This document shows, in pieces, positions 5,255 to 34,415 of a DNA stretch of 64,000 bases. Both the position numbers and the translations under genes were made by a program. Source of the DNA: a virus; IMG/VR virus record IMGVR_UViG_3300031552_000002, positions 11,792 through 75,791 of that record. One strand, given 5' to 3'. The notes below the pieces were generated by a model, which was not told the origin of the DNA, did no database searches, and saw only the letters and a program-made list of their open reading frames with translations. How positions within the stretch are numbered: the stretch's first letter is position 1; each line of letters opens with the position of its first letter.

Positions 5255-5295
5255 GGTGTCCTCCGCGTCATCGTCGTCATCGTCCCGACGTCCAC

Positions 5296-5324
5296 ATACT
5301 GTCACGTGCGGCTGTCATTGTCAA
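5296..5324 (-). promoter_or_regulatory. Repeated promoter, copy 3
   Basis: TTGACA-N17-CAGTATGTGGACGTC. Confidence 0.8.
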
Positions 5325-5345
5325 TGCGGAATACACGCCCCCACG

Positions 5346-5876
5346 TCATCCCTGCGAGCACGGCCCCAGCCGCTCACCGTCGAGAGTCGTCACACCTTCC
5401 CCCAGGTGCGCATCGCGGCTGATCTGACTTCCATGCGAGAGGATCACGTTCCGCTCGACGTCCGAACCGGAGCCGACGAATGATCCACTACCGATGAGGG
5501 CGTTCCTCCCTATCGTGACCCTTTCTCCGATCTGGACGGCGATCCCGACGACAACGGCGTCATGGATATGCGTCGCGTCTCCGACTCGGAGCCCATGCCC
5601 GAGGTCCGTGTGGCCACCATCGATGACGACGTCATCACCGATCTCGGAGCCGATCCCGAGGCTCGCGCCGATGCGCGACCTTGCCCCGATCTTCACCCCG
5701 AACCCGATCTTGACGTCATCCTCGATCTTGGTGTCTTCCCCGACGTCAGATCCAGCGAAGATCACCGCACGCCTGCCCACCTCGACCCCGGGGCCGATCT
5801 TTACCCAAGGGCCTACGGTGGCCGTCTCGTCGATAGTGGCCGTCTCGTTGATGGTGGCCGTCTTGTCGATGCCCAT
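5346..5876 (-). CDS. Hexapeptide-repeat left-handed beta-helix protein
   Basis: Continuous [IV]G/[ID]xxxx hexapeptide periodicity (TATINE TATIDE TATVGP WVKIGP GVEVGR); RBS AGGAGG. Confidence 0.8.
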   Translation of the reverse strand: MGIDKTATINETATIDETATVGPWVKIGPGVEVGRRAVIFAGSDVGEDTKIEDDVKIGFGVKIGARSRIGASLGIGSEIGDDVVIDGGHTDLGHGLRVGDATHIHDAVVVGIAVQIGERVTIGRNALIGSGSFVGSGSDVERNVILSHGSQISRDAHLGEGVTTLDGERLGPCSQG

Positions 5877-5974
5877 TGACTTCCTCCTTGTCAGAATCCG
5901 TTGTCTCCGCGGTCCCGCCGGTCCGTCTACCCGTCGCTGGCGGCCGCAGGCGACGAATGACGACGTGCTCGTGC

Positions 5975-6906
5975 TCAGGGAGAGCAGAGCTCGGGATCGG
6001 CGGCTCTCCGACGCTGCCTGAGGGCCGCCTTGACGTAGTCCGGCACCGGCACGCCCTTGCCGGCGCACTCCGGGCAGCAGATGACACGGTGGGTCGGGTG
6101 GTCAGGGCACATCGCCTGAGGACCGGGAGCCGGGTGGGCCGCTGTGTGCCGATCTGACGGCCTCAAATCGCGAAGCCATGCCACCACAGCACCACCGTGG
6201 CACGAACCCCAGGACCGGGAACCTACGGCGGCGGAAATGGTCCCTGGGGTCCACCCGTCGGCTATCAGCCGCTCACACTCCCGGATGATGACTCCCCGGT
6301 TCAGGGACCGGCCCACGTCACCGACACCCTCGACAACCGCCTCAGCGAGGAGGGCAGTGGTTCCCCTGTGCCCGGCCTCAGTCGGGTTCTGGGTTGCGGG
6401 GTTTCCCGTTGATCCTTCCACCACCACCGTTGCCTCGTCTTGGGGTGCGGTGGGGCCGGTGGGCTGGGGGGCTTGGGGGGTGGATGGTTCTACGGATGGT
6501 TCTAAGGATGGTTCGGGGGATGCTGGCATCCTCCCCCCCCCGGATGCTGGCATCCTCCCCCCCCGGATGCTGGCATCCCCCCCTGTTCAGGTGTCCGATG
6601 CTGCGACGTCCCATCGCAGCCGGCCGGACACCGGACGAGGATTTCATACCGGTTCGGACGCTCATGCTCAGCGGTCCGGCGAGTCCCGCCATCGCCCAGG
6701 TGAGTCCGGATCTCGCCGGCAGTCTCCAGGCGGCGCAGGGCCGCGCGGACGTTCCGGGGATCGACGTTCGCGTACTTGGCCAGCGTCGCGATGGTCGGCC
6801 AGGACCCGCCGTCGCCGTCGTGGTTGGCGATCCCGAGGAGGACGACCTTGTCGGTGCCTCTGGACCGTGAGTGGTGCAGGACGATCGCCAGTGCCTCGAC
6901 GCTCAT
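5975..6906 (-). CDS. HTH-type replication initiator Rep1, frameshifted in an iteron G-tract
   Basis: KVVLLGIANHD...SWPTIATLAKYAN...VRAALRRLETAGEI; ORFs 6502..6906 and 5975..6553 join if the C8 at 6557-6564 were C9. Confidence 0.7.
6518..6578. repeat. Iteron-like palindromic repeats (candidate origin 1)
   Basis: GGATGCTGGCATCC x3 spaced by C-tracts; adjacent 12-bp GGATGGTTCTA repeats. Confidence 0.7.
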
Positions 6907-6992
6907 GCCGGGCCTCTCCGCCCGGTCTCAGCATCCGACCGGACCGGGAGTGTGCCTCGACCGATCCGGGATGCGCGGGTACTATGGTTCAT
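6903..6992 (-). CDS. Putative 29-aa leader peptide translationally coupled to Rep1
   Basis: GGAGCTGACATG start; MNHSTRASR...RRGPA* with its stop overlapping the Rep1 ATG (ATGA). Confidence 0.5.
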   Translation of the reverse strand: MNHSTRASRIGRGTLPVRSDAETGRRGPA

Positions 6993-7055
6993 GTCAGCTC
7001 CGATCTGACCATGGCCCGGATCCCCTACCAGGGATGCCGGGCCTCCACTTTTTGT
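6980..7055 (+). ncRNA. Putative antisense (counter-transcribed) RNA over the Rep1 leader RBS
   Basis: -10 TACTAT, 5 nt, ATGTCAGCTCC, two hairpins, T-run; homolog at 33521..33600. Confidence 0.55.
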
Positions 7056-7257
7056 CTTGTGCTGTAACCATACTCTGTGGTCTCGTTCGCTGGCCGCAAG
7101 GAACGGCATCGAATATCTACAGCTCAGGTCGGGGTCACCTATCACCCCAGGTCCTCGATCTTCACCTGCCCCGACCCGTTGGACAAGGACAAGATCCTCC
7201 GTGCGATCGCTGGCATCGATCCTGCGGCGGTGATCACCGCCTGACACCAGCAACGCA

Positions 7258-7303
7258 CGCAGGGAGCCCCCGATCTCGCTATGAGATCAGGGGCTCCCTA
7301 CGT
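7258..7303. terminator. Long hairpin terminator
   Basis: agggagccccc gatctc...gagatc aggggctccct. Confidence 0.65.
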
Positions 7304-7307
7304 CTTG

Positions 7308-7616
7308 TCAGATCTTCGTCCGGCGCTTCCGGGGTTGAGTCTTCCTATCGTCGAGGCCCCACCAGCCGCACCCCGGCCGTGATCTCCGCCAGGCCAGTAC
7401 GTCTGAACGCCGGTACAGGTACCGGTGCAGATCAGGGGACCATGTCCTCGGGCACGGCGTGCACGCGGCAGTGTCCCGGAGGGCTGCCCGCGTGAAAACC
7501 GGGCGCGTCATCCTGAGAAGATCCGCCGCCTGCTGCGAGGTCAGCCAAACATCATCACCGGTCATGGTGTCATCGTCTCGTTCCATGTCTCGTTCCATTC
7601 CTTCACCTCCTCCCAC
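7308..7616 (-). CDS. Excisionase/MerR-like HTH protein
   Basis: WLTSQQAADLLRMT...RYLYRRSDVLAW; start uncertain. Confidence 0.65.
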   Translation of the reverse strand: MGGGEGMERDMERDDDTMTGDDVWLTSQQAADLLRMTRPVFTRAALRDTAACTPCPRTWSPDLHRYLYRRSDVLAWRRSRPGCGWWGLDDRKTQPRKRRTKI

Positions 7617-10705: not shown

Positions 10706-12808
10706 ATGGGCAGGATGAGGACTCCGGGGCCGCTGCGTCCCGCCGTGGGGGTCGTGCGGCTGGTGCGGCGCCGGAAGCGCCGTGCCACTCAGAAGGCTGC
10801 CGAGCAGCGGAACGCCGACCGGCAGCAGGCCAGGGACCTTGCGGTTCTCGCTGCCCTCGCGCAACAGTCCGGGGCCAGCATCGACCTGGGGGCCCTCTCG
10901 GGGAAGATCCCTACCGGTAAGCCTGCCTGGCATCGTGCCTACCTGCAGGCTGGTGGGCACCGGGCCATCGGGTCCGTGTGGGCAGTCGCTCTGGGGCTCG
11001 ACGTGACCTGGCTGGGCGTCCACTACCTGCCCGGGGGGTGGATGGTGGGGGTCGGGAAAGCCCTCGTTGCCCTGGCGTGGATGGTAGGGGCTGTCCTGTG
11101 GCTGGGAAGTCTCGGCGGAGGGGCGAACCGCCGCATCGCGTCGTCCGGGGTTGTCCTGTTGTCGGCCGTCTGGGTGGGTCTCCCAGCCGGGCCGGTGGAG
11201 CTCCCCGCCCGATGGATGACGCTGGTCCTGGTCGCGGTCGTGGCGTCCGTGGCGAGGGGCTGGCATTTCCGGGCCCGCCCGGTCACGGAAGAGACCAGGG
11301 CAGCGCGGAAGCCGCGCCAGACAGACCAGGCCCGGACCTGGGATGAGTACCTGGGGGCCGAGAAGAAAGCAATCGCCGGGACCCGCCTGGAGGGTGTCGA
11401 GGTCAAGGACACGTCGTGGTCGGCGACGGTTGTGTGCCCGAGGGACTCTCAGGGCGCGCAGCTCGTCGTTAGTGCCCGGGAGCGCATCGCCACGGCTTTC
11501 GGGGTGTCGCCGCTGTGGGTCGAGGTCATCCGGACCTCGGACAACTCGCGGCCTCGGGTCGTCGTGACGACAGAGGCGACCCTCGCGGAGTCCCGGCCGT
11601 GGACTCCTGCCGGGGTGACGGCGACGACGGTCGAGGTCGGGACCCGCCCGGACGGCACCCGGGTGGTCGCTGAAGTGCAGCGCCCGGAATCCGGGGTCCG
11701 CCACTGGTGGTTCACCGGCGGGTCCGGGTCGGGGAAGACAGCGGCGGTGATCGGGACGGTGGGGCGGATCATGCAGCCGCACGTGCCGGCACTGGAGGCC
11801 ACAGGTGAGAAGGTCGGGTGGGTCGTCCTTGACCTCGTGGACCTGGGTGAGACCTCGCTCCCCGCCCTCGCGGATGACCGGGTGAGGTTCCGGTTCGGGA
11901 CGACGGTCGAGGACTGCCGGCTCGCGCTCCAGCGGGCTGTCGCGGTGATGGAGTCCCGGCAGCACGCTATGCGGTCTATGCGGATCGTGGACCGGGGGGT
12001 GGAGCGTGTCGGTGTCTCGACGCTCCAGGTGGGCCCCGAGTACCCCCTGTACCTCCTCCTGATCGAGGAGGCTACGGGGATCATCGGGGACAAACAGTCG
12101 ATGCTGCTTGCGCAGCAGGTCGCGAAGTTAGGCAGAAAGTACGGCGTGTCCCTGGCCTGGGTTACCCAGACCAGCAGCCTCAACGAGGCTTTCGGGCCGA
12201 ACGGCGGCGAGGCCGTCCGCATGAATATTCAGGCCAACGGGTCGGTGTGGGCCGGATGGTCGAACCGCGGGTCCGGGCAGATGGCTTTCGGTGGCGGTGT
12301 TCAGATCAATCTCGCCGAGATCCCGAAGGGCCAGCCGGGAACGGGCCTGTGGGTCACTCAGGGCGGGGACCGGTGCGGGGTGTCCCGAACGGACTGGATC
12401 GATGATTCACAGGGCCGCCCCGACAGCGTGCCGTCGATGTGGCAGGTCGCGGACACGATCGTTCCCGGGGGCCTCGAAGCGGCGGCGTTGGTGGCCGTCG
12501 AGGAGGTCGAGGCCGCCGCTGTTCAGGGGAGCGGGGAAGGCGGGGAGGTCCCGGCGGTCCGGCTGGTGGAGGCGTCGTCCTCGGTGGGTGACCGGCGAGC
12601 GCTGGTCGCAGGGATCGTCGAGGATCTGGCCGCGGAAGGCCCGGTTAGGACATCCGAGGTGATGGTCGAGTTCTTGGCCCGTACTGGGGACGCCGGGCTG
12701 CAACCAACGGACCCCGAATGGGGAAAGATTTACGACCGTGTTCTGAAGGATCTCGGGCAAGTCGCCGCGAAAACCTCTCGCGGCCAGTGGGAAAGGAAAG
12801 CAGCATGA
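10706..12808 (+). CDS. traB: TraB-like FtsK/SpoIIIE DNA translocase
   Basis: N-terminal TM helices, Walker A GGSGSGKT, Walker B LLLIEE, LGRKYGV...TQ, C-terminal wHTH-like region. Confidence 0.75.
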   Translation: MGRMRTPGPLRPAVGVVRLVRRRKRRATQKAAEQRNADRQQARDLAVLAALAQQSGASIDLGALSGKIPTGKPAWHRAYLQAGGHRAIGSVWAVALGLDVTWLGVHYLPGGWMVGVGKALVALAWMVGAVLWLGSLGGGANRRIASSGVVLLSAVWVGLPAGPVELPARWMTLVLVAVVASVARGWHFRARPVTEETRAARKPRQTDQARTWDEYLGAEKKAIAGTRLEGVEVKDTSWSATVVCPRDSQGAQLVVSARERIATAFGVSPLWVEVIRTSDNSRPRVVVTTEATLAESRPWTPAGVTATTVEVGTRPDGTRVVAEVQRPESGVRHWWFTGGSGSGKTAAVIGTVGRIMQPHVPALEATGEKVGWVVLDLVDLGETSLPALADDRVRFRFGTTVEDCRLALQRAVAVMESRQHAMRSMRIVDRGVERVGVSTLQVGPEYPLYLLLIEEATGIIGDKQSMLLAQQVAKLGRKYGVSLAWVTQTSSLNEAFGPNGGEAVRMNIQANGSVWAGWSNRGSGQMAFGGGVQINLAEIPKGQPGTGLWVTQGGDRCGVSRTDWIDDSQGRPDSVPSMWQVADTIVPGGLEAAALVAVEEVEAAAVQGSGEGGEVPAVRLVEASSSVGDRRALVAGIVEDLAAEGPVRTSEVMVEFLARTGDAGLQPTDPEWGKIYDRVLKDLGQVAAKTSRGQWERKAA

Positions 12809-21623: not shown

Positions 21624-21790
21624 CTGTCGCCCGCGGCCGTACTCGACAGGTCCGCGCCTGGCCCCAGGGTGGGGCCTGCACGGTGCAACAGGAGCGGCCC
21701 CACTCCCCGTGACGGGGGGAGTGGGGCCGTTTCTCATCCCGTCCAGGTGAGTGCCCAGGCGCTCGGGCACTCACCTGCCCGCCCCGGATC

Positions 21791-23123: not shown

Positions 23124-24485
23124 TCACCCCTCCGCCATGTCAACGAACCTCGAATAGTGCCCCTGGAACGCCACCGTCACCGTGTCCGTCGGCCCGTTCC
23201 GGTGCTTCGCCACGATCAGGTCCGCCTCCCCCGCCCGGGGGCTCTCCCGGTCGTAGGCATCCTCCCGGTGCAACAGGATCACCAGGTCAGCGTCCTGCTC
23301 GATAGCCCCCGACTCGCGGAGATCCGACAGCAACGGACGACGATCCGCCCGCTGCTCCGGACCCCGATTCAGCTGGCTCAACGCCACGACGGGTACCCCT
23401 AACTCTTTCGCGAGGAGCTTCAGAGTCCGAGAGAACTCGGAGACCTCCTGCTGCCGGCTCTCCACCCGGCGCCCTGACGTCATGAGCTGGAGATAGTCCA
23501 CGATGATCAGCTTCAGGTCGTTCCGTTGCTTGAGCCTGCGGCATTTCGCGCGGATCTCTGGGAGCGACATGTTCGGGCTGTCGTCGATGAACAGTGGCGC
23601 GTCCTGGAGTTCAGCGATTTTTTCGGCGATCCGTATCCAGTCAGAATCCTCGACGGCCCCGGTACGAAGCTTCTGGAGCCCGACGCGGGCCTGCGCGGAG
23701 AGAAAACGCATGGTGACTTCCTGGGCGCTCATCTCCAGTGAGAACAGCACCGTGGTGAGCTTCGACATGGCGGCCGAGCGTGCGAAGTCGAGGGCGAGGG
23801 TCGATTTTCCGATTGCGGGACGGGCCGCGATCACGACCAGTTGCCCGGGGTGTAGCCCGTGGGTGAGCCGGTCAAGATCCGCAAATCCTGTCGGTATGCC
23901 CTGCATCGTCATATTATGGCATCCTGCCGCCTCGACGATGTCGATGACCTCCTCGACGAGCATCCCGAGGGGCCGACAGTCCGATGCCTGGTTGCGGGCC
24001 CCGGTGGCATCGTCAAGGGCAGCGTGGGCTGCCGTGACCGCTTCCTCAGCAGTCTCGGACGCTGCCCCGGACCGTCGGTGCCCGATCTGGAGGATCCGCG
24101 TCCCCGCCATGGTGAGAGCCCGGAGGGTTGCCGCCGTCCGGACGGCCTCGGCGTAGGACCGTGCCCCCGCCGTCGAGGGGACCTCAGCGATCAGCGTGTG
24201 GAGGTACGCCGGGCCGCCGATCTGGGTGATCTGCCCGGCGTTGACGAGCCGTGACGCCACGGTCACGGGGTCTGCTGGTTCGCCGGCCCCGTACAGGTCC
24301 AGAACCGTGTCATAGATGATCTCGTGTGCAGGGCGGTAAAAATCGTGTCCCCTAAGGACCTCAACGACGTCCGCGATGGCGTCCTTGGACAGCAGCATTG
24401 CTCCGAGGACAGAGCGTTCCGCAGGGTCGTCCTGGGGCGGGGTAGGGGTGTTGGTGTCGTCATAGGTGTCTGTCAGCTCAGTCAA
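23124..24485 (-). CDS. dnaB: Replicative DNA helicase
   Basis: PPQD..AERSVLG, AARPAIGKS, VDYLQL, LSQLNRG, SDLRESGAIEQDAD. Confidence 0.97.
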   Translation of the reverse strand: MTELTDTYDDTNTPTPPQDDPAERSVLGAMLLSKDAIADVVEVLRGHDFYRPAHEIIYDTVLDLYGAGEPADPVTVASRLVNAGQITQIGGPAYLHTLIAEVPSTAGARSYAEAVRTAATLRALTMAGTRILQIGHRRSGAASETAEEAVTAAHAALDDATGARNQASDCRPLGMLVEEVIDIVEAAGCHNMTMQGIPTGFADLDRLTHGLHPGQLVVIAARPAIGKSTLALDFARSAAMSKLTTVLFSLEMSAQEVTMRFLSAQARVGLQKLRTGAVEDSDWIRIAEKIAELQDAPLFIDDSPNMSLPEIRAKCRRLKQRNDLKLIIVDYLQLMTSGRRVESRQQEVSEFSRTLKLLAKELGVPVVALSQLNRGPEQRADRRPLLSDLRESGAIEQDADLVILLHREDAYDRESPRAGEADLIVAKHRNGPTDTVTVAFQGHYSRFVDMAEG

Positions 24486-31542: not shown

Positions 31543-31869
31543 ATGAGCGAAGAAAGACTCCGCTGGATCTCCCACATCATGGGAGACGACTGCCTCACAA
31601 ACGCCACGCGCCTAATCGCCGTGGCCTACGCCATCACCCCATCAGAAGGAAGGACAGTCCAGCTCACAGCAAAAGAGGTAATGGCACTGTCAGGGATCAG
31701 ATCAACCATGACAGTATCGAGATCACGGAAACAACTAATAGCACGCGGATGGCTCACCACCGAAACACGCAGAGGATGGGGAAAAGCAGCAACTTATACC
31801 CTCACCATCCCGGCAGGCCGGCAACCGGCCACCACCAGCATCGATACCACGGACGGGGCGTCCCGATGA
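31543..31869 (+). CDS. Winged-HTH protein, A-rich, probably leaderless
   Basis: TVSRSRKQLIARGWL; TACAAT 6 nt before ATG. Confidence 0.65.
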   Translation: MSEERLRWISHIMGDDCLTNATRLIAVAYAITPSEGRTVQLTAKEVMALSGIRSTMTVSRSRKQLIARGWLTTETRRGWGKAATYTLTIPAGRQPATTSIDTTDGASR

Positions 31870-32621
31870 AAGACCTTGAGCAGGGTGACCGCTGGTGGTC
31901 GCAGCTGTCGGCTCTCGACACGGAGACGACAGGGGCCAACACGGCTGAGGACCGTATCGTCACCGCCGCCATCACGAGCGCTGGCACCGGGCCGTGCCGC
32001 GAGTGGCTCATCTATCCGGAAGTCGAGATCCCGGAGAGCGCTACAGCCGTTCACGGGGTTTCCACGGAGCACGCGCAGAAACACGGCTGGGACGCGCGTC
32101 TGGTCCTTACCGAGATCTCCAGCATGCTCCAAGAGATCACGGAAAGGGGCGTGCCCCTCGTGGTCTTTAATGCGAAATTCGATCTCCCAATACTCACGGC
32201 GGAGTTTCACCGCCACGGCGTCAATAACGGCGCCTGGCCCGAGATCATTGACCCCCTGGTCATCGACAAGCACGTTGACCAATACCGGGGGGGAAGCCGT
32301 AAGCTCGACGCTGTCTGCGAGCACTGGGGGGTGGAGCTAGTGAACGCGCATTCCTCAACCGGTGACGCAGAGGCCGCGCTGCTCCTCGCCCAGGCAATGT
32401 TTGACCGTGGAGTCCTCAACAACAGCCTCGTCTATGAGAAGAAAGGCGAAGACGGGGAACTGTGTCTGTTCCAGGTGGATGGATCGTCCAGCAGTCTCCA
32501 GGCTGCGCAAGCGGCCTGGGCAGACCAGCAATCGGACTCTCTCCGGAAGTTCTGGAGAAAGAAAGGCAACCCGCTGTGGAAGACCGTCACCAACGGGTGG
32601 CCCTTTCCCAAGGGGCAATAG
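31866..32621 (+). CDS. DnaQ-like DEDDh 3'-5' exonuclease
   Basis: LDTETTG, VHGV, FNAKFD, AHSSTGDA. Confidence 0.9.
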   Translation: MKDLEQGDRWWSQLSALDTETTGANTAEDRIVTAAITSAGTGPCREWLIYPEVEIPESATAVHGVSTEHAQKHGWDARLVLTEISSMLQEITERGVPLVVFNAKFDLPILTAEFHRHGVNNGAWPEIIDPLVIDKHVDQYRGGSRKLDAVCEHWGVELVNAHSSTGDAEAALLLAQAMFDRGVLNNSLVYEKKGEDGELCLFQVDGSSSSLQAAQAAWADQQSDSLRKFWRKKGNPLWKTVTNGWPFPKGQ

Positions 32622-32633
32622 CTGCGATTGTGA

Positions 32634-33533
32634 TCACGCTGCTACCGTTGCCGCGCATTGGCCTCGGAGAAGGTCTCGGATCCTCGCAGCCCCAGCGCTG
32701 GGAGCAGGGGCCTGCTCCGGTATCACCTGCTGCGCTACGGGAATAGTGCCCGCGTACCGGGGGTGGCAGTGGCAGCGTCTCATGCGGCCGTATCCGTCCT
32801 CGACGAAACCGTGGTCACAGGACCCGCACCACTCCCGGCGGGGAACAGGAAGACGGCACGGGGTGACCTCGCCGAGCCGGTGGAGGAGGACAGCCCGGGG
32901 GCTCCGGGCCCCGTCGAGGGCCCCGCTAAGGGTCTCCTCGGCGGCCCGAAAACCACGCAGGGCGTTCCCGGCGCCGAGGCCACGAAGGATCGGCAGGAGC
33001 TCGTCCTCCTGGACTGGCAGGGACATCCTGGCGAGTCGGCGTCGGACGTCCAGCTCGTCAGGGTCTTCCTCCTGGCGTTCAGTGGGCGCGGGCCCGGCGT
33101 GAGGCCAGACGACAGCGGGAGGCCCCGGGCGCAGAACCTCGACCGGGCGCCGGACTGCTGTGGGTTCCTCTACGAGCGCGGGGTTCTCGTGGGGCTCCTG
33201 GGATGCGTCCTCGACGTGTTCGGCTGTCTCCGTGGCTCCTGCGGACGGCGCGTAGGTCGTCAGCGTGTACGTGCACCCGACGATCCCGCCGTTCCGGTGC
33301 CGCTGCACCGACGTGACCAGCCCCGAGGCCCTGAGGGCAACCAGGGCCGCCTTGACGGGGCGGAGCGTGAGGCCAGCGCGTTCGGCAATCGCGTGCTGTG
33401 AGGGCCAGCAGGTGCCGTTGCTGTCGGCGAAGGACTCAAGCGCCAGGTACACGCGAACCTCAGCGCCGGTCTTGGTGAGTTCGAGGGCCCGTGCCGCTCT
33501 GAGGCGCGGTCCCGGGCAGGTACACTGTTCCAT
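32634..33533 (-). CDS. HTH-type replication initiator Rep2
   Basis: VYLALESFAD..GTCWPSQHAIAERAGL...ALVALRASGLV; C-terminal WCGSC...RCHCHP. Confidence 0.7.
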   Translation of the reverse strand: MEQCTCPGPRLRAARALELTKTGAEVRVYLALESFADSNGTCWPSQHAIAERAGLTLRPVKAALVALRASGLVTSVQRHRNGGIVGCTYTLTTYAPSAGATETAEHVEDASQEPHENPALVEEPTAVRRPVEVLRPGPPAVVWPHAGPAPTERQEEDPDELDVRRRLARMSLPVQEDELLPILRGLGAGNALRGFRAAEETLSGALDGARSPRAVLLHRLGEVTPCRLPVPRREWCGSCDHGFVEDGYGRMRRCHCHPRYAGTIPVAQQVIPEQAPAPSAGAARIRDLLRGQCAATVAA

Positions 33534-33600
33534 GTCAGCTCCTATCAAGCTGGCCACGGCCCGGACCCCCTCCGCAGGGGTGCCGGGCCTTCTTCTGTCG
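33521..33600 (+). ncRNA. Putative antisense RNA over the Rep2 RBS
   Basis: -10 TACACT, 5 nt, ATGTCAGCTCC, hairpins homologous to 6980..7055. Confidence 0.55.
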
Positions 33601-33689
33601 TTGTGGTCCTGAAGCTATCACCTGCCGCCGCTGTTCCCGTGGAGCACCTCGCCGAGGCCGAGGCTGGGGGGTAGGGGGGTTCTTTCCTT

Positions 33690-33784
33690 GAAAACCTTCT
33701 TTGGAAACCTTCTGTAGGCTCCACAGAGCACTAGGTAGTGCTCCGTGGAGCACTAGGTGGTGCTGGTGGGAGCACCAGGTAGGA
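33690..33784. repeat. Iteron-like 22-bp-period repeats (candidate origin 2)
   Basis: GAGCACTAGGT at 33726 and 33748, variant at 33770; adjacent GAAACCTTCT-like repeats. Confidence 0.6.
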
Positions 33785-34415
33785 CGAGGCCGTCCAAGAC
33801 CTCTGACGGGTAGGTGGATGACACCGTGCTGGTGCCGTCCCCCCGGGTCACCTGGTAAGAGCCGTGCACAGTCGATGACACCGACCCTGCTGCTTCCATC
33901 GCGGCCCTGACCATCAGTTCCGGTGACAGCTCTAGCCTGCTGGCCACGGCTAGGGCACCGGAGGCGATGGCCTCAGCGCTGCCGATCGCCACGTAGCCGC
34001 AGAACGGGACGAGTACCCCGTAGTTGCTCTCGATCAGCGCGCACGAGTCATCGTGCGCGATGACGAGTTGCTCATCGCAGGACGGGAACCCCGGGCCCTG
34101 ATGGGTGAGCCCAGCCTCAGCGAATGTTCGCCGGAGGAACGGGACAACGGCTCGCACGACCCAGGTGCAGAATCTCTCGTGGGGGAACCGTTCGGGGAGC
34201 TTACTTCCCGTCCGGACGCTGGACAGGATGAGCTGCGGGGTGAGCGCGATCCCGGCTGTACCCAGGTAGGCGTGAAGGTACGACCCGGTAACGGGAACGG
34301 CAACGATCTTCGGGTTGTCGTACTCGTCGCTGAGTACTGGGTCTGAATACCGGTAGTCCGCTGCGATCGCGGCACTACCACGGCCAGGCCCGGCGGCAGC
34401 GATGACCAGAGTCAT
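33753..34415 (-). CDS. Ntn-hydrolase (HslV/proteasome-beta-like) peptidase
   Basis: M-T-LVIAA...AAD, PKI, AIGS. Confidence 0.7.
   Translation of the reverse strand: MTLVIAAAGPGRGSAAIAADYRYSDPVLSDEYDNPKIVAVPVTGSYLHAYLGTAGIALTPQLILSSVRTGSKLPERFPHERFCTWVVRAVVPFLRRTFAEAGLTHQGPGFPSCDEQLVIAHDDSCALIESNYGVLVPFCGYVAIGSAEAIASGALAVASRLELSPELMVRAAMEAAGSVSSTVHGSYQVTRGDGTSTVSSTYPSEVLDGLVLPGAPTSTT

Follow-up and report, generated by a model that had tools for sequence, protein, structure and literature searches.

A covarying two-hairpin element opposite the start of a phage replication initiator gene, a candidate cis-antisense RNA

We identified a two-hairpin element on the plus strand of a stretch of phage DNA of 64,000 nucleotides, hereafter called the window, where it lies opposite the Shine-Dalgarno (SD) sequence and start codon of a predicted replication initiator gene (initiator gene 2). 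A second copy is found near another initiator gene of the same window (initiator gene 1). The stems of the element covary among its relatives, and a number of sequence signals point to the strand that is antisense to the genes. On this basis we propose, with moderate confidence, that the plus strand at approximately 33532-33604 encodes a ~70-nt cis-antisense RNA which would block the initiation of initiator translation.

Anatomy of the element at initiator gene 2

The copy at initiator gene 2, referred to here as copy B, and the gene that it faces comprise the following features.

33519-33604, plus strand: the 85-base two-hairpin element, copy B, opposite the SD and start codon of initiator gene 2
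33521-33526, plus strand: -10-like hexamer TACACT (TANNNT), a candidate antisense promoter, inside codons 3-5 of initiator gene 2
33531-33542, plus strand: CATGTCAGCTCC, separated from TACACT by the 4-nt spacer GTTC
33534-33554, plus strand: hairpin 1, GUCAGCU/AGCUGGC, with the anti-SD GCUCCU in its 5′ arm and loop
33558-33589, plus strand: hairpin 2, in which a 7-bp outer stem GGCCCGG/CCGGGCC is followed, past an internal bulge, by an inner stem of 5 bp; candidate stem of the terminator
33590-33604, plus strand: T-rich tail TTCTTCTGTCGTTGT, with 6 T in its first 10 nt
33532-33604, plus strand: predicted antisense RNA of ~70 nt; the -10 spacing would place its 5′ end at the A or G of CATG, and the terminator-like sequence would place its 3′ end at the end of the tail
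33539-33543, minus strand: SD sequence AGGAG of initiator gene 2, 5 nt upstream of the ATG, as read from the sequence
32634-33533, minus strand: initiator gene 2, encoding a 299-aa O-like HTH_36 protein, from Pfam and PHROG matches
33718-33793, no strand assigned: three to four 22-bp iteron-like repeats, 130-200 bp upstream of initiator gene 2
23124-24485: DnaB helicase gene

A sequence-only reading of this DNA had described TACACT, the spacing behind it, CATGTCAGCTCC and both hairpins, and all of these were found in place when the sequence was read directly. The same reading took the covered ATG to be the start of the initiator itself. This proved correct: the CAT at 33531-33533 on the plus strand is the ATG of the 299-aa gene on the minus strand, AGGAG stands 5 nt ahead of it, and the start at 33533 is supported by a database homologue (P0004, 90% identical) that opens with the same N-terminus, MEQCTCPG. 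The predicted RNA of copy B is thus complementary to both the AGGAG and the ATG of the HTH_36 gene.

The product of initiator gene 2 matches PF13730 (HTH_36, an N-terminal winged-helix domain) at 34.1 bits against a Pfam cut-off of 25. Moreover, it matches phrog_391, phrog_1032 and phrog_270, PHROGs annotated as 'replication initiation O-like / replication initiation protein', with E-values of 2e-10 to 3e-9. By these matches the 299-aa protein would belong with the Lambda-O-like/HTH_36 phage replication initiators, its activity being predicted. Its neighbours are a convergent RNase_T exonuclease gene (31749-32621), YqaJ, RecT and DnaB. The portal protein is ~40% identical to Streptomyces phage portal proteins, and the record is therefore taken to be that of an actinobacterial tailed phage.

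At an orthologous locus on another contig (L213), 22-bp repeats are found in the same place (about 2790-2870) with a different sequence. An unchanged period with a changed sequence is what would be expected if iterons co-evolve with their initiator. Both loci also share a conserved CCCCCTACCCCC block and a conserved, doubled GAAGGnnnTnCA block (33664-33710).

Other genes of the record were also noted. A TET-associated glycosyltransferase gene (TAGT, PF20691, E 4e-33) lies to the left of the window at L241:5288-6190 (G000 5288-6190) and suggests that the phage DNA is hypermodified, and a pentapeptide-repeat protein is encoded at L241:10748-11647. A 700-aa ORF (10706-12808, plus strand) has no Pfam or PHROG match, and PF01580 matches nothing in the whole record; a reading of this ORF as an FtsK/TraB-like conjugation module is therefore unsupported by profile searches.

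Copy A and a small covarying family

The second copy lies in front of initiator gene 1 and covers the start of a short leader ORF.

6978-7058, plus strand: element copy A, with TACTAT at 6980-6985, hairpin 1 at 6993-7009, hairpin 2 at 7013-7043 and the tail at 7044-7058
6903-6992, minus strand: 29-aa leader ORF, its SD and ATG covered by copy A and its stop overlapping the initiator-1 ATG as ATGA
5975-6906, minus strand: initiator gene 1 (HTH_36), which a frameshift divides into 6502-6906 and 5975-6553

Copies A and B align at 83% column identity, with equal spacing and different loops. Exactly two occurrences of the 12-mer (33531-33542 in copy B), and likewise of the full pattern, were counted in the window as in the whole 75.8-kb record, and a covariance-model scan with filters off found full-length copies only at A and B. 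A weak third match of that scan (21677-21743) was rejected as an ordinary terminator-like GC hairpin (GGCCCCACTCCCC..GGGGAGTGGGGCC, 21694-21731) followed by the T-containing GTTTCTC. Another strong GC hairpin, with 21-bp arms (7257-7303), follows the HTH_17 gene at 7308-7616 and also has the look of an ordinary terminator.

The sequence-only reading went on to suggest that the phage carries two full replicons. This is doubtful. A frameshift inside a repeated MPAS(G/P)n coding repeat divides initiator gene 1 into P0002 (134 aa) and P0003 (192 aa), whereas its orthologue at L003 (79% identical) is a continuous protein of 335 aa with the same MPAS repeat; the gene may be a pseudogene, or the split may stem from an assembly error or from phase variation. 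Moreover, no integrase, resolvase, tyrosine or serine recombinase, ParA, ParB or FtsK_SpoIIIE was matched in the record, for which CheckV estimates 84% completeness. Replicon-specific control through the different loops, as had also been suggested, is plausible in principle, since the hairpin-1 loops of A and B have hardly any complementarity to each other. The computed binding of each RNA to the other's target is still favourable, at about -32 kcal/mol against -85 to -95 kcal/mol for the cognate pairs, so that cross-talk between A and B may occur.

Pattern scans and covariance models (first R1, then R2) were used to find members of the family in phage and metagenome contigs. Six were recovered beyond A and B:

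L213: in front of an orthologue of initiator 2, 46% identical
L003: in front of a homologue of initiator 1, 79% identical
L044 and L064: in front of homologues of initiator 1, 47-48% identical
L088 (G005): in front of a 151-aa MUG113/GIY-YIG-like gene
L247: in front of a 92-aa signal-peptide protein gene

The eight members represent about four or five independent lineages, and both the size of the family and its gene association are lower bounds. L003 was detected at E 4e-5 though it was in no training alignment. Between copy B and L213 the element is far better conserved than either its flanks or the initiator protein. Further candidates (L216, L221/L225, L084 and L090) were not counted: they carry an SD with ATG and a GGCCCGG hairpin, but neither hairpin 1 nor the -10 hexamer is present in them.

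In the alignment of all eight members, 97.3% of pair cells are paired, compared with 34-54% when the partners are slid by 1-3 columns, and both sides have changed in 14/19 pairs, values reached by none of 500 shuffles; the alignments behind these counts were fitted to the structure of the model. Hairpin 2 alone accounts for nine covarying pairs out of 12. Its outer stem reads GGCCCGG, GCCCCAG, GCCCCGG or GATCTGG depending on the member, with a matching partner arm each time, and the one-sided bulged G is kept in 7/8. Between the two copies of the window there is likewise a compensatory change, in that one inner-stem pair is U-A in copy A and C-G in copy B. The claims of compensatory change and of a conserved covarying family of RNA type are supported by the eight members and by the 14/19 pairs of their alignment.

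The proposed link to replication genes holds in part. The family is real and small, and is enriched at initiator genes but not exclusive to them: L088 and L247 (2/8 members) are at non-initiator genes, and the element is present at only 3 of the 80 loci that encode initiator-1 homologues. At most of these homologues the gene immediately upstream is an HTH_17 gene, and the element is absent. Initiator-1-type HTH_36 proteins (the P0002 homologues of loci L003-L082) are common in viral contigs of 15-17 kb and also occur in Arthrobacter phages of 15.3-15.6 kb (e.g. Decurro and Toulouse), usually after a MerR/excisionase-like HTH gene.

The DNA of the 1.9-kb locus and the protein P0001 had no match in GenBank phages or PLSDB plasmids, and the full pattern was absent from the 401 Streptomyces genomes searched. 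In a pattern scan of genome contigs, all of the matches listed (at least 120) were without the second stem arm and were taken for chance SD/start matches. None of the 4227 Rfam families matched the 64-kb window at its gathering threshold; the best matches by E-value (E up to 10) were unrelated and at chance level, such as sX13 (20.5 bits against 50) and scr5239 (13.6 against 64).

Strand polarity and alternative readings

We propose the following course of events. A -10-only promoter, the TACACT embedded in codons 3-5 of the initiator, would drive an antisense RNA whose transcription starts opposite the start codon. The 5′ hairpin of this RNA would present the anti-SD in and next to its loop, and the GC-rich, bulged hairpin 2 with the U-rich tail would act as terminator. 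The predicted RNA would then anneal to the leader of the initiator-2 mRNA, to which it is fully complementary, and would block ribosome binding by masking the SD and AUG, so lowering translation of the O-like initiator and possibly affecting replication. The RNA of copy A would act likewise on the 29-aa leader ORF, which is translationally coupled to initiator 1 through ATGA.

Four strand-specific signals favour the plus strand, antisense to the ORFs, as the RNA. Firstly, the consensus pairs read on the plus strand include nine G-U cells and no A-C cell. Two of the G-U pairs are in mid-stem (L044 and L247), where the sense strand would have C-A mismatches, and a U-G pair in hairpin 1 is possible only on the plus strand. 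Secondly, TANNNT occupies the same alignment column in 7/8 members, and the remaining one, L003, has TACGAT and TACCAT nearby. Thirdly, in all five members that cover a start codon the arrangement is TANNNT, 4 nt and CAT, which in sense terms is A-NNN-TA at +8 to +13. These five are unrelated reading frames (a leader peptide, two HTH_36 proteins, a MUG113 protein and a signal-peptide protein) whose fourth codons are AGT, TGT, GGT, GAT and CGT, and codons ending in T make up only 11.8% in this genome. Lastly, 4-6 T are found within 10 nt after hairpin 2 in 8/8 members. Within the window, at least 4 T in 10 nt occur at 8% of positions and at least 6 T at 0.4%; the U-tails of L088, L213, L044, L064 and L247 are weak. 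On the sense strand no U-run follows the hairpin.

Other results bear against the antisense RNA. No -35 element is conserved, and a simple sigma-70 promoter scan and a strict terminator scan called nothing at A or B. The predicted RNA would miss the initiator ATG in L044 and L064. Moreover, the sense strand folds slightly more stably than the plus strand, at -38.4 against -36.2 kcal/mol for copy B and -32.8 against -29.2 kcal/mol for copy A.

These energies are also part of the case for the strongest alternative, in which the element is a 5′-leader cassette of the sense strand and the functional RNA is the mRNA itself, with no antisense RNA. Hairpin 2 would then stabilise the 5′ end, undergo RNase III-type processing or bind a protein, and hairpin 1, with the SD exposed in its loop, would make initiation efficient. 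Such a leader would suit an element that always adjoins an ORF start or a leader, that in L088 sits between two co-directional genes, 8 nt past a stop codon, and for which no consensus plus-strand promoter or terminator was called. It would also suit the AUG or GUG that 7/8 members have immediately after hairpin 2 on the sense strand. However, a sense leader does not account for G-U pairs that fall on the antisense strand only, nine to none, nor for a T-rich run on the antisense side. The A-NNN-TA at +8 to +13, kept with a rare codon in five unrelated ORFs, has no evident sense role, and no sense-strand promoter or -10 was found to be conserved between copy B and L213. We regard this reading as rather doubtful, though it is the best placed of the alternatives.

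The AUG or GUG mentioned above is part of a conserved CCRUGG linker and lies on the sense strand at 33555-33557 in copy B, at 7010-7012 in copy A, at L044:2939 and L064:2940, and in L247. In copy A it begins a mini-ORF of seven codons, and the UGA of this ORF overlaps the AUG of the leader. It shares the reading frame of the initiator in B and L213, and in L044 it opens a 21-aa ORF that ends in ATGA at the initiator start.

It is unlikely that hairpin 2 and its tail are a mere plus-strand terminator, which would halt read-through antisense transcription before the iteron/origin region, with the remaining conservation reflecting the shared SD and start. The exonuclease gene at 31749-32621 is convergent with initiator gene 2 and could supply such read-through, and the terminator-like orientation does face the iterons. 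This leaves unexplained, however, the TANNNT at fixed spacing, the covarying hairpin 1 and the conserved CCAYG linker, and neither a comparable convergent gene nor iterons are present at copy A, L088 or L247. A site acting at the DNA level, either a palindromic operator for a dimeric regulator or the hairpin of a single-strand origin, is very improbable: the inverted repeats do adjoin iterons and an initiator gene, and operator half-sites would co-change too, but the conserved G bulged on one side only, the G-U pairs, and the stems, fully changed yet still paired, fit an RNA and not a protein site in duplex DNA, and some members are at non-replication genes.

A possible portable regulatory unit and its closest known counterparts

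If the antisense RNA exists, it offers a simple handle on how the phage limits or times the synthesis of its initiator. Moreover, it would be a complete regulatory unit, with a promoter hidden in the first codons, that can be grafted onto unrelated genes, and it would offer a compact part for gene control in high-GC actinomycetes; its function is predicted and the family is small. The sites at which the element was seen are two different O-like initiators, a MUG113/GIY-YIG-like gene and the gene of a small secreted protein. We tentatively suggest that the element is a self-contained, portable antisense-RNA cassette, consisting of a promoter within the first five codons, an anti-SD hairpin and a terminator, which moves among unrelated actinophage genes as a plug-in translational brake; A and B might then cross-talk and so coordinate the two initiators.

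Control of initiator translation by antisense RNA is textbook plasmid biology. In our literature search, no such RNA was described for actinobacterial tailed phages or Streptomyces plasmids. The antisense and ctRNA families of Rfam would be of the same functional class if the prediction holds, and none of them matched.

In plasmid pMV158, translation of the initiator gene repB is inhibited by RNAII, a small countertranscript (PMC4485353, PMC5717011). RNAII has a 17-nt single-stranded tail and a single bulged hairpin, whose loop is 6 nt long and behind which comes a U-rich 3′ stretch. Hairpin 2 of the present element is similar in having a one-nucleotide bulge and loops of 4-7 nt. However, there is no sequence homology, and in place of the 17-nt single-stranded tail of RNAII the element has an extra 5′ hairpin with the anti-SD. 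The hosts of the two systems also differ, in that pMV158 is a streptococcal rolling-circle plasmid and the element belongs to a tailed actinobacterial phage, where it is known from sequence alone and where no CopG-like partner was identified.

In the CopA/tap/repA system of plasmid R1, the target of the antisense RNA is a leader peptide ORF to which translation of the initiator is coupled (PMC5717011). Copy B departs from this arrangement, since it covers the initiator's own SD and ATG and has no leader. In copy A, unlike in R1, the SD and ATG of the leader would themselves lie within the duplex, and there is neither homology to CopA nor an Rfam CopA match. Copy A (6903-7058) nevertheless resembles CopA/tap in that it lies on a leader ORF, the coupling to the initiator being provided here by the ATGA overlap.
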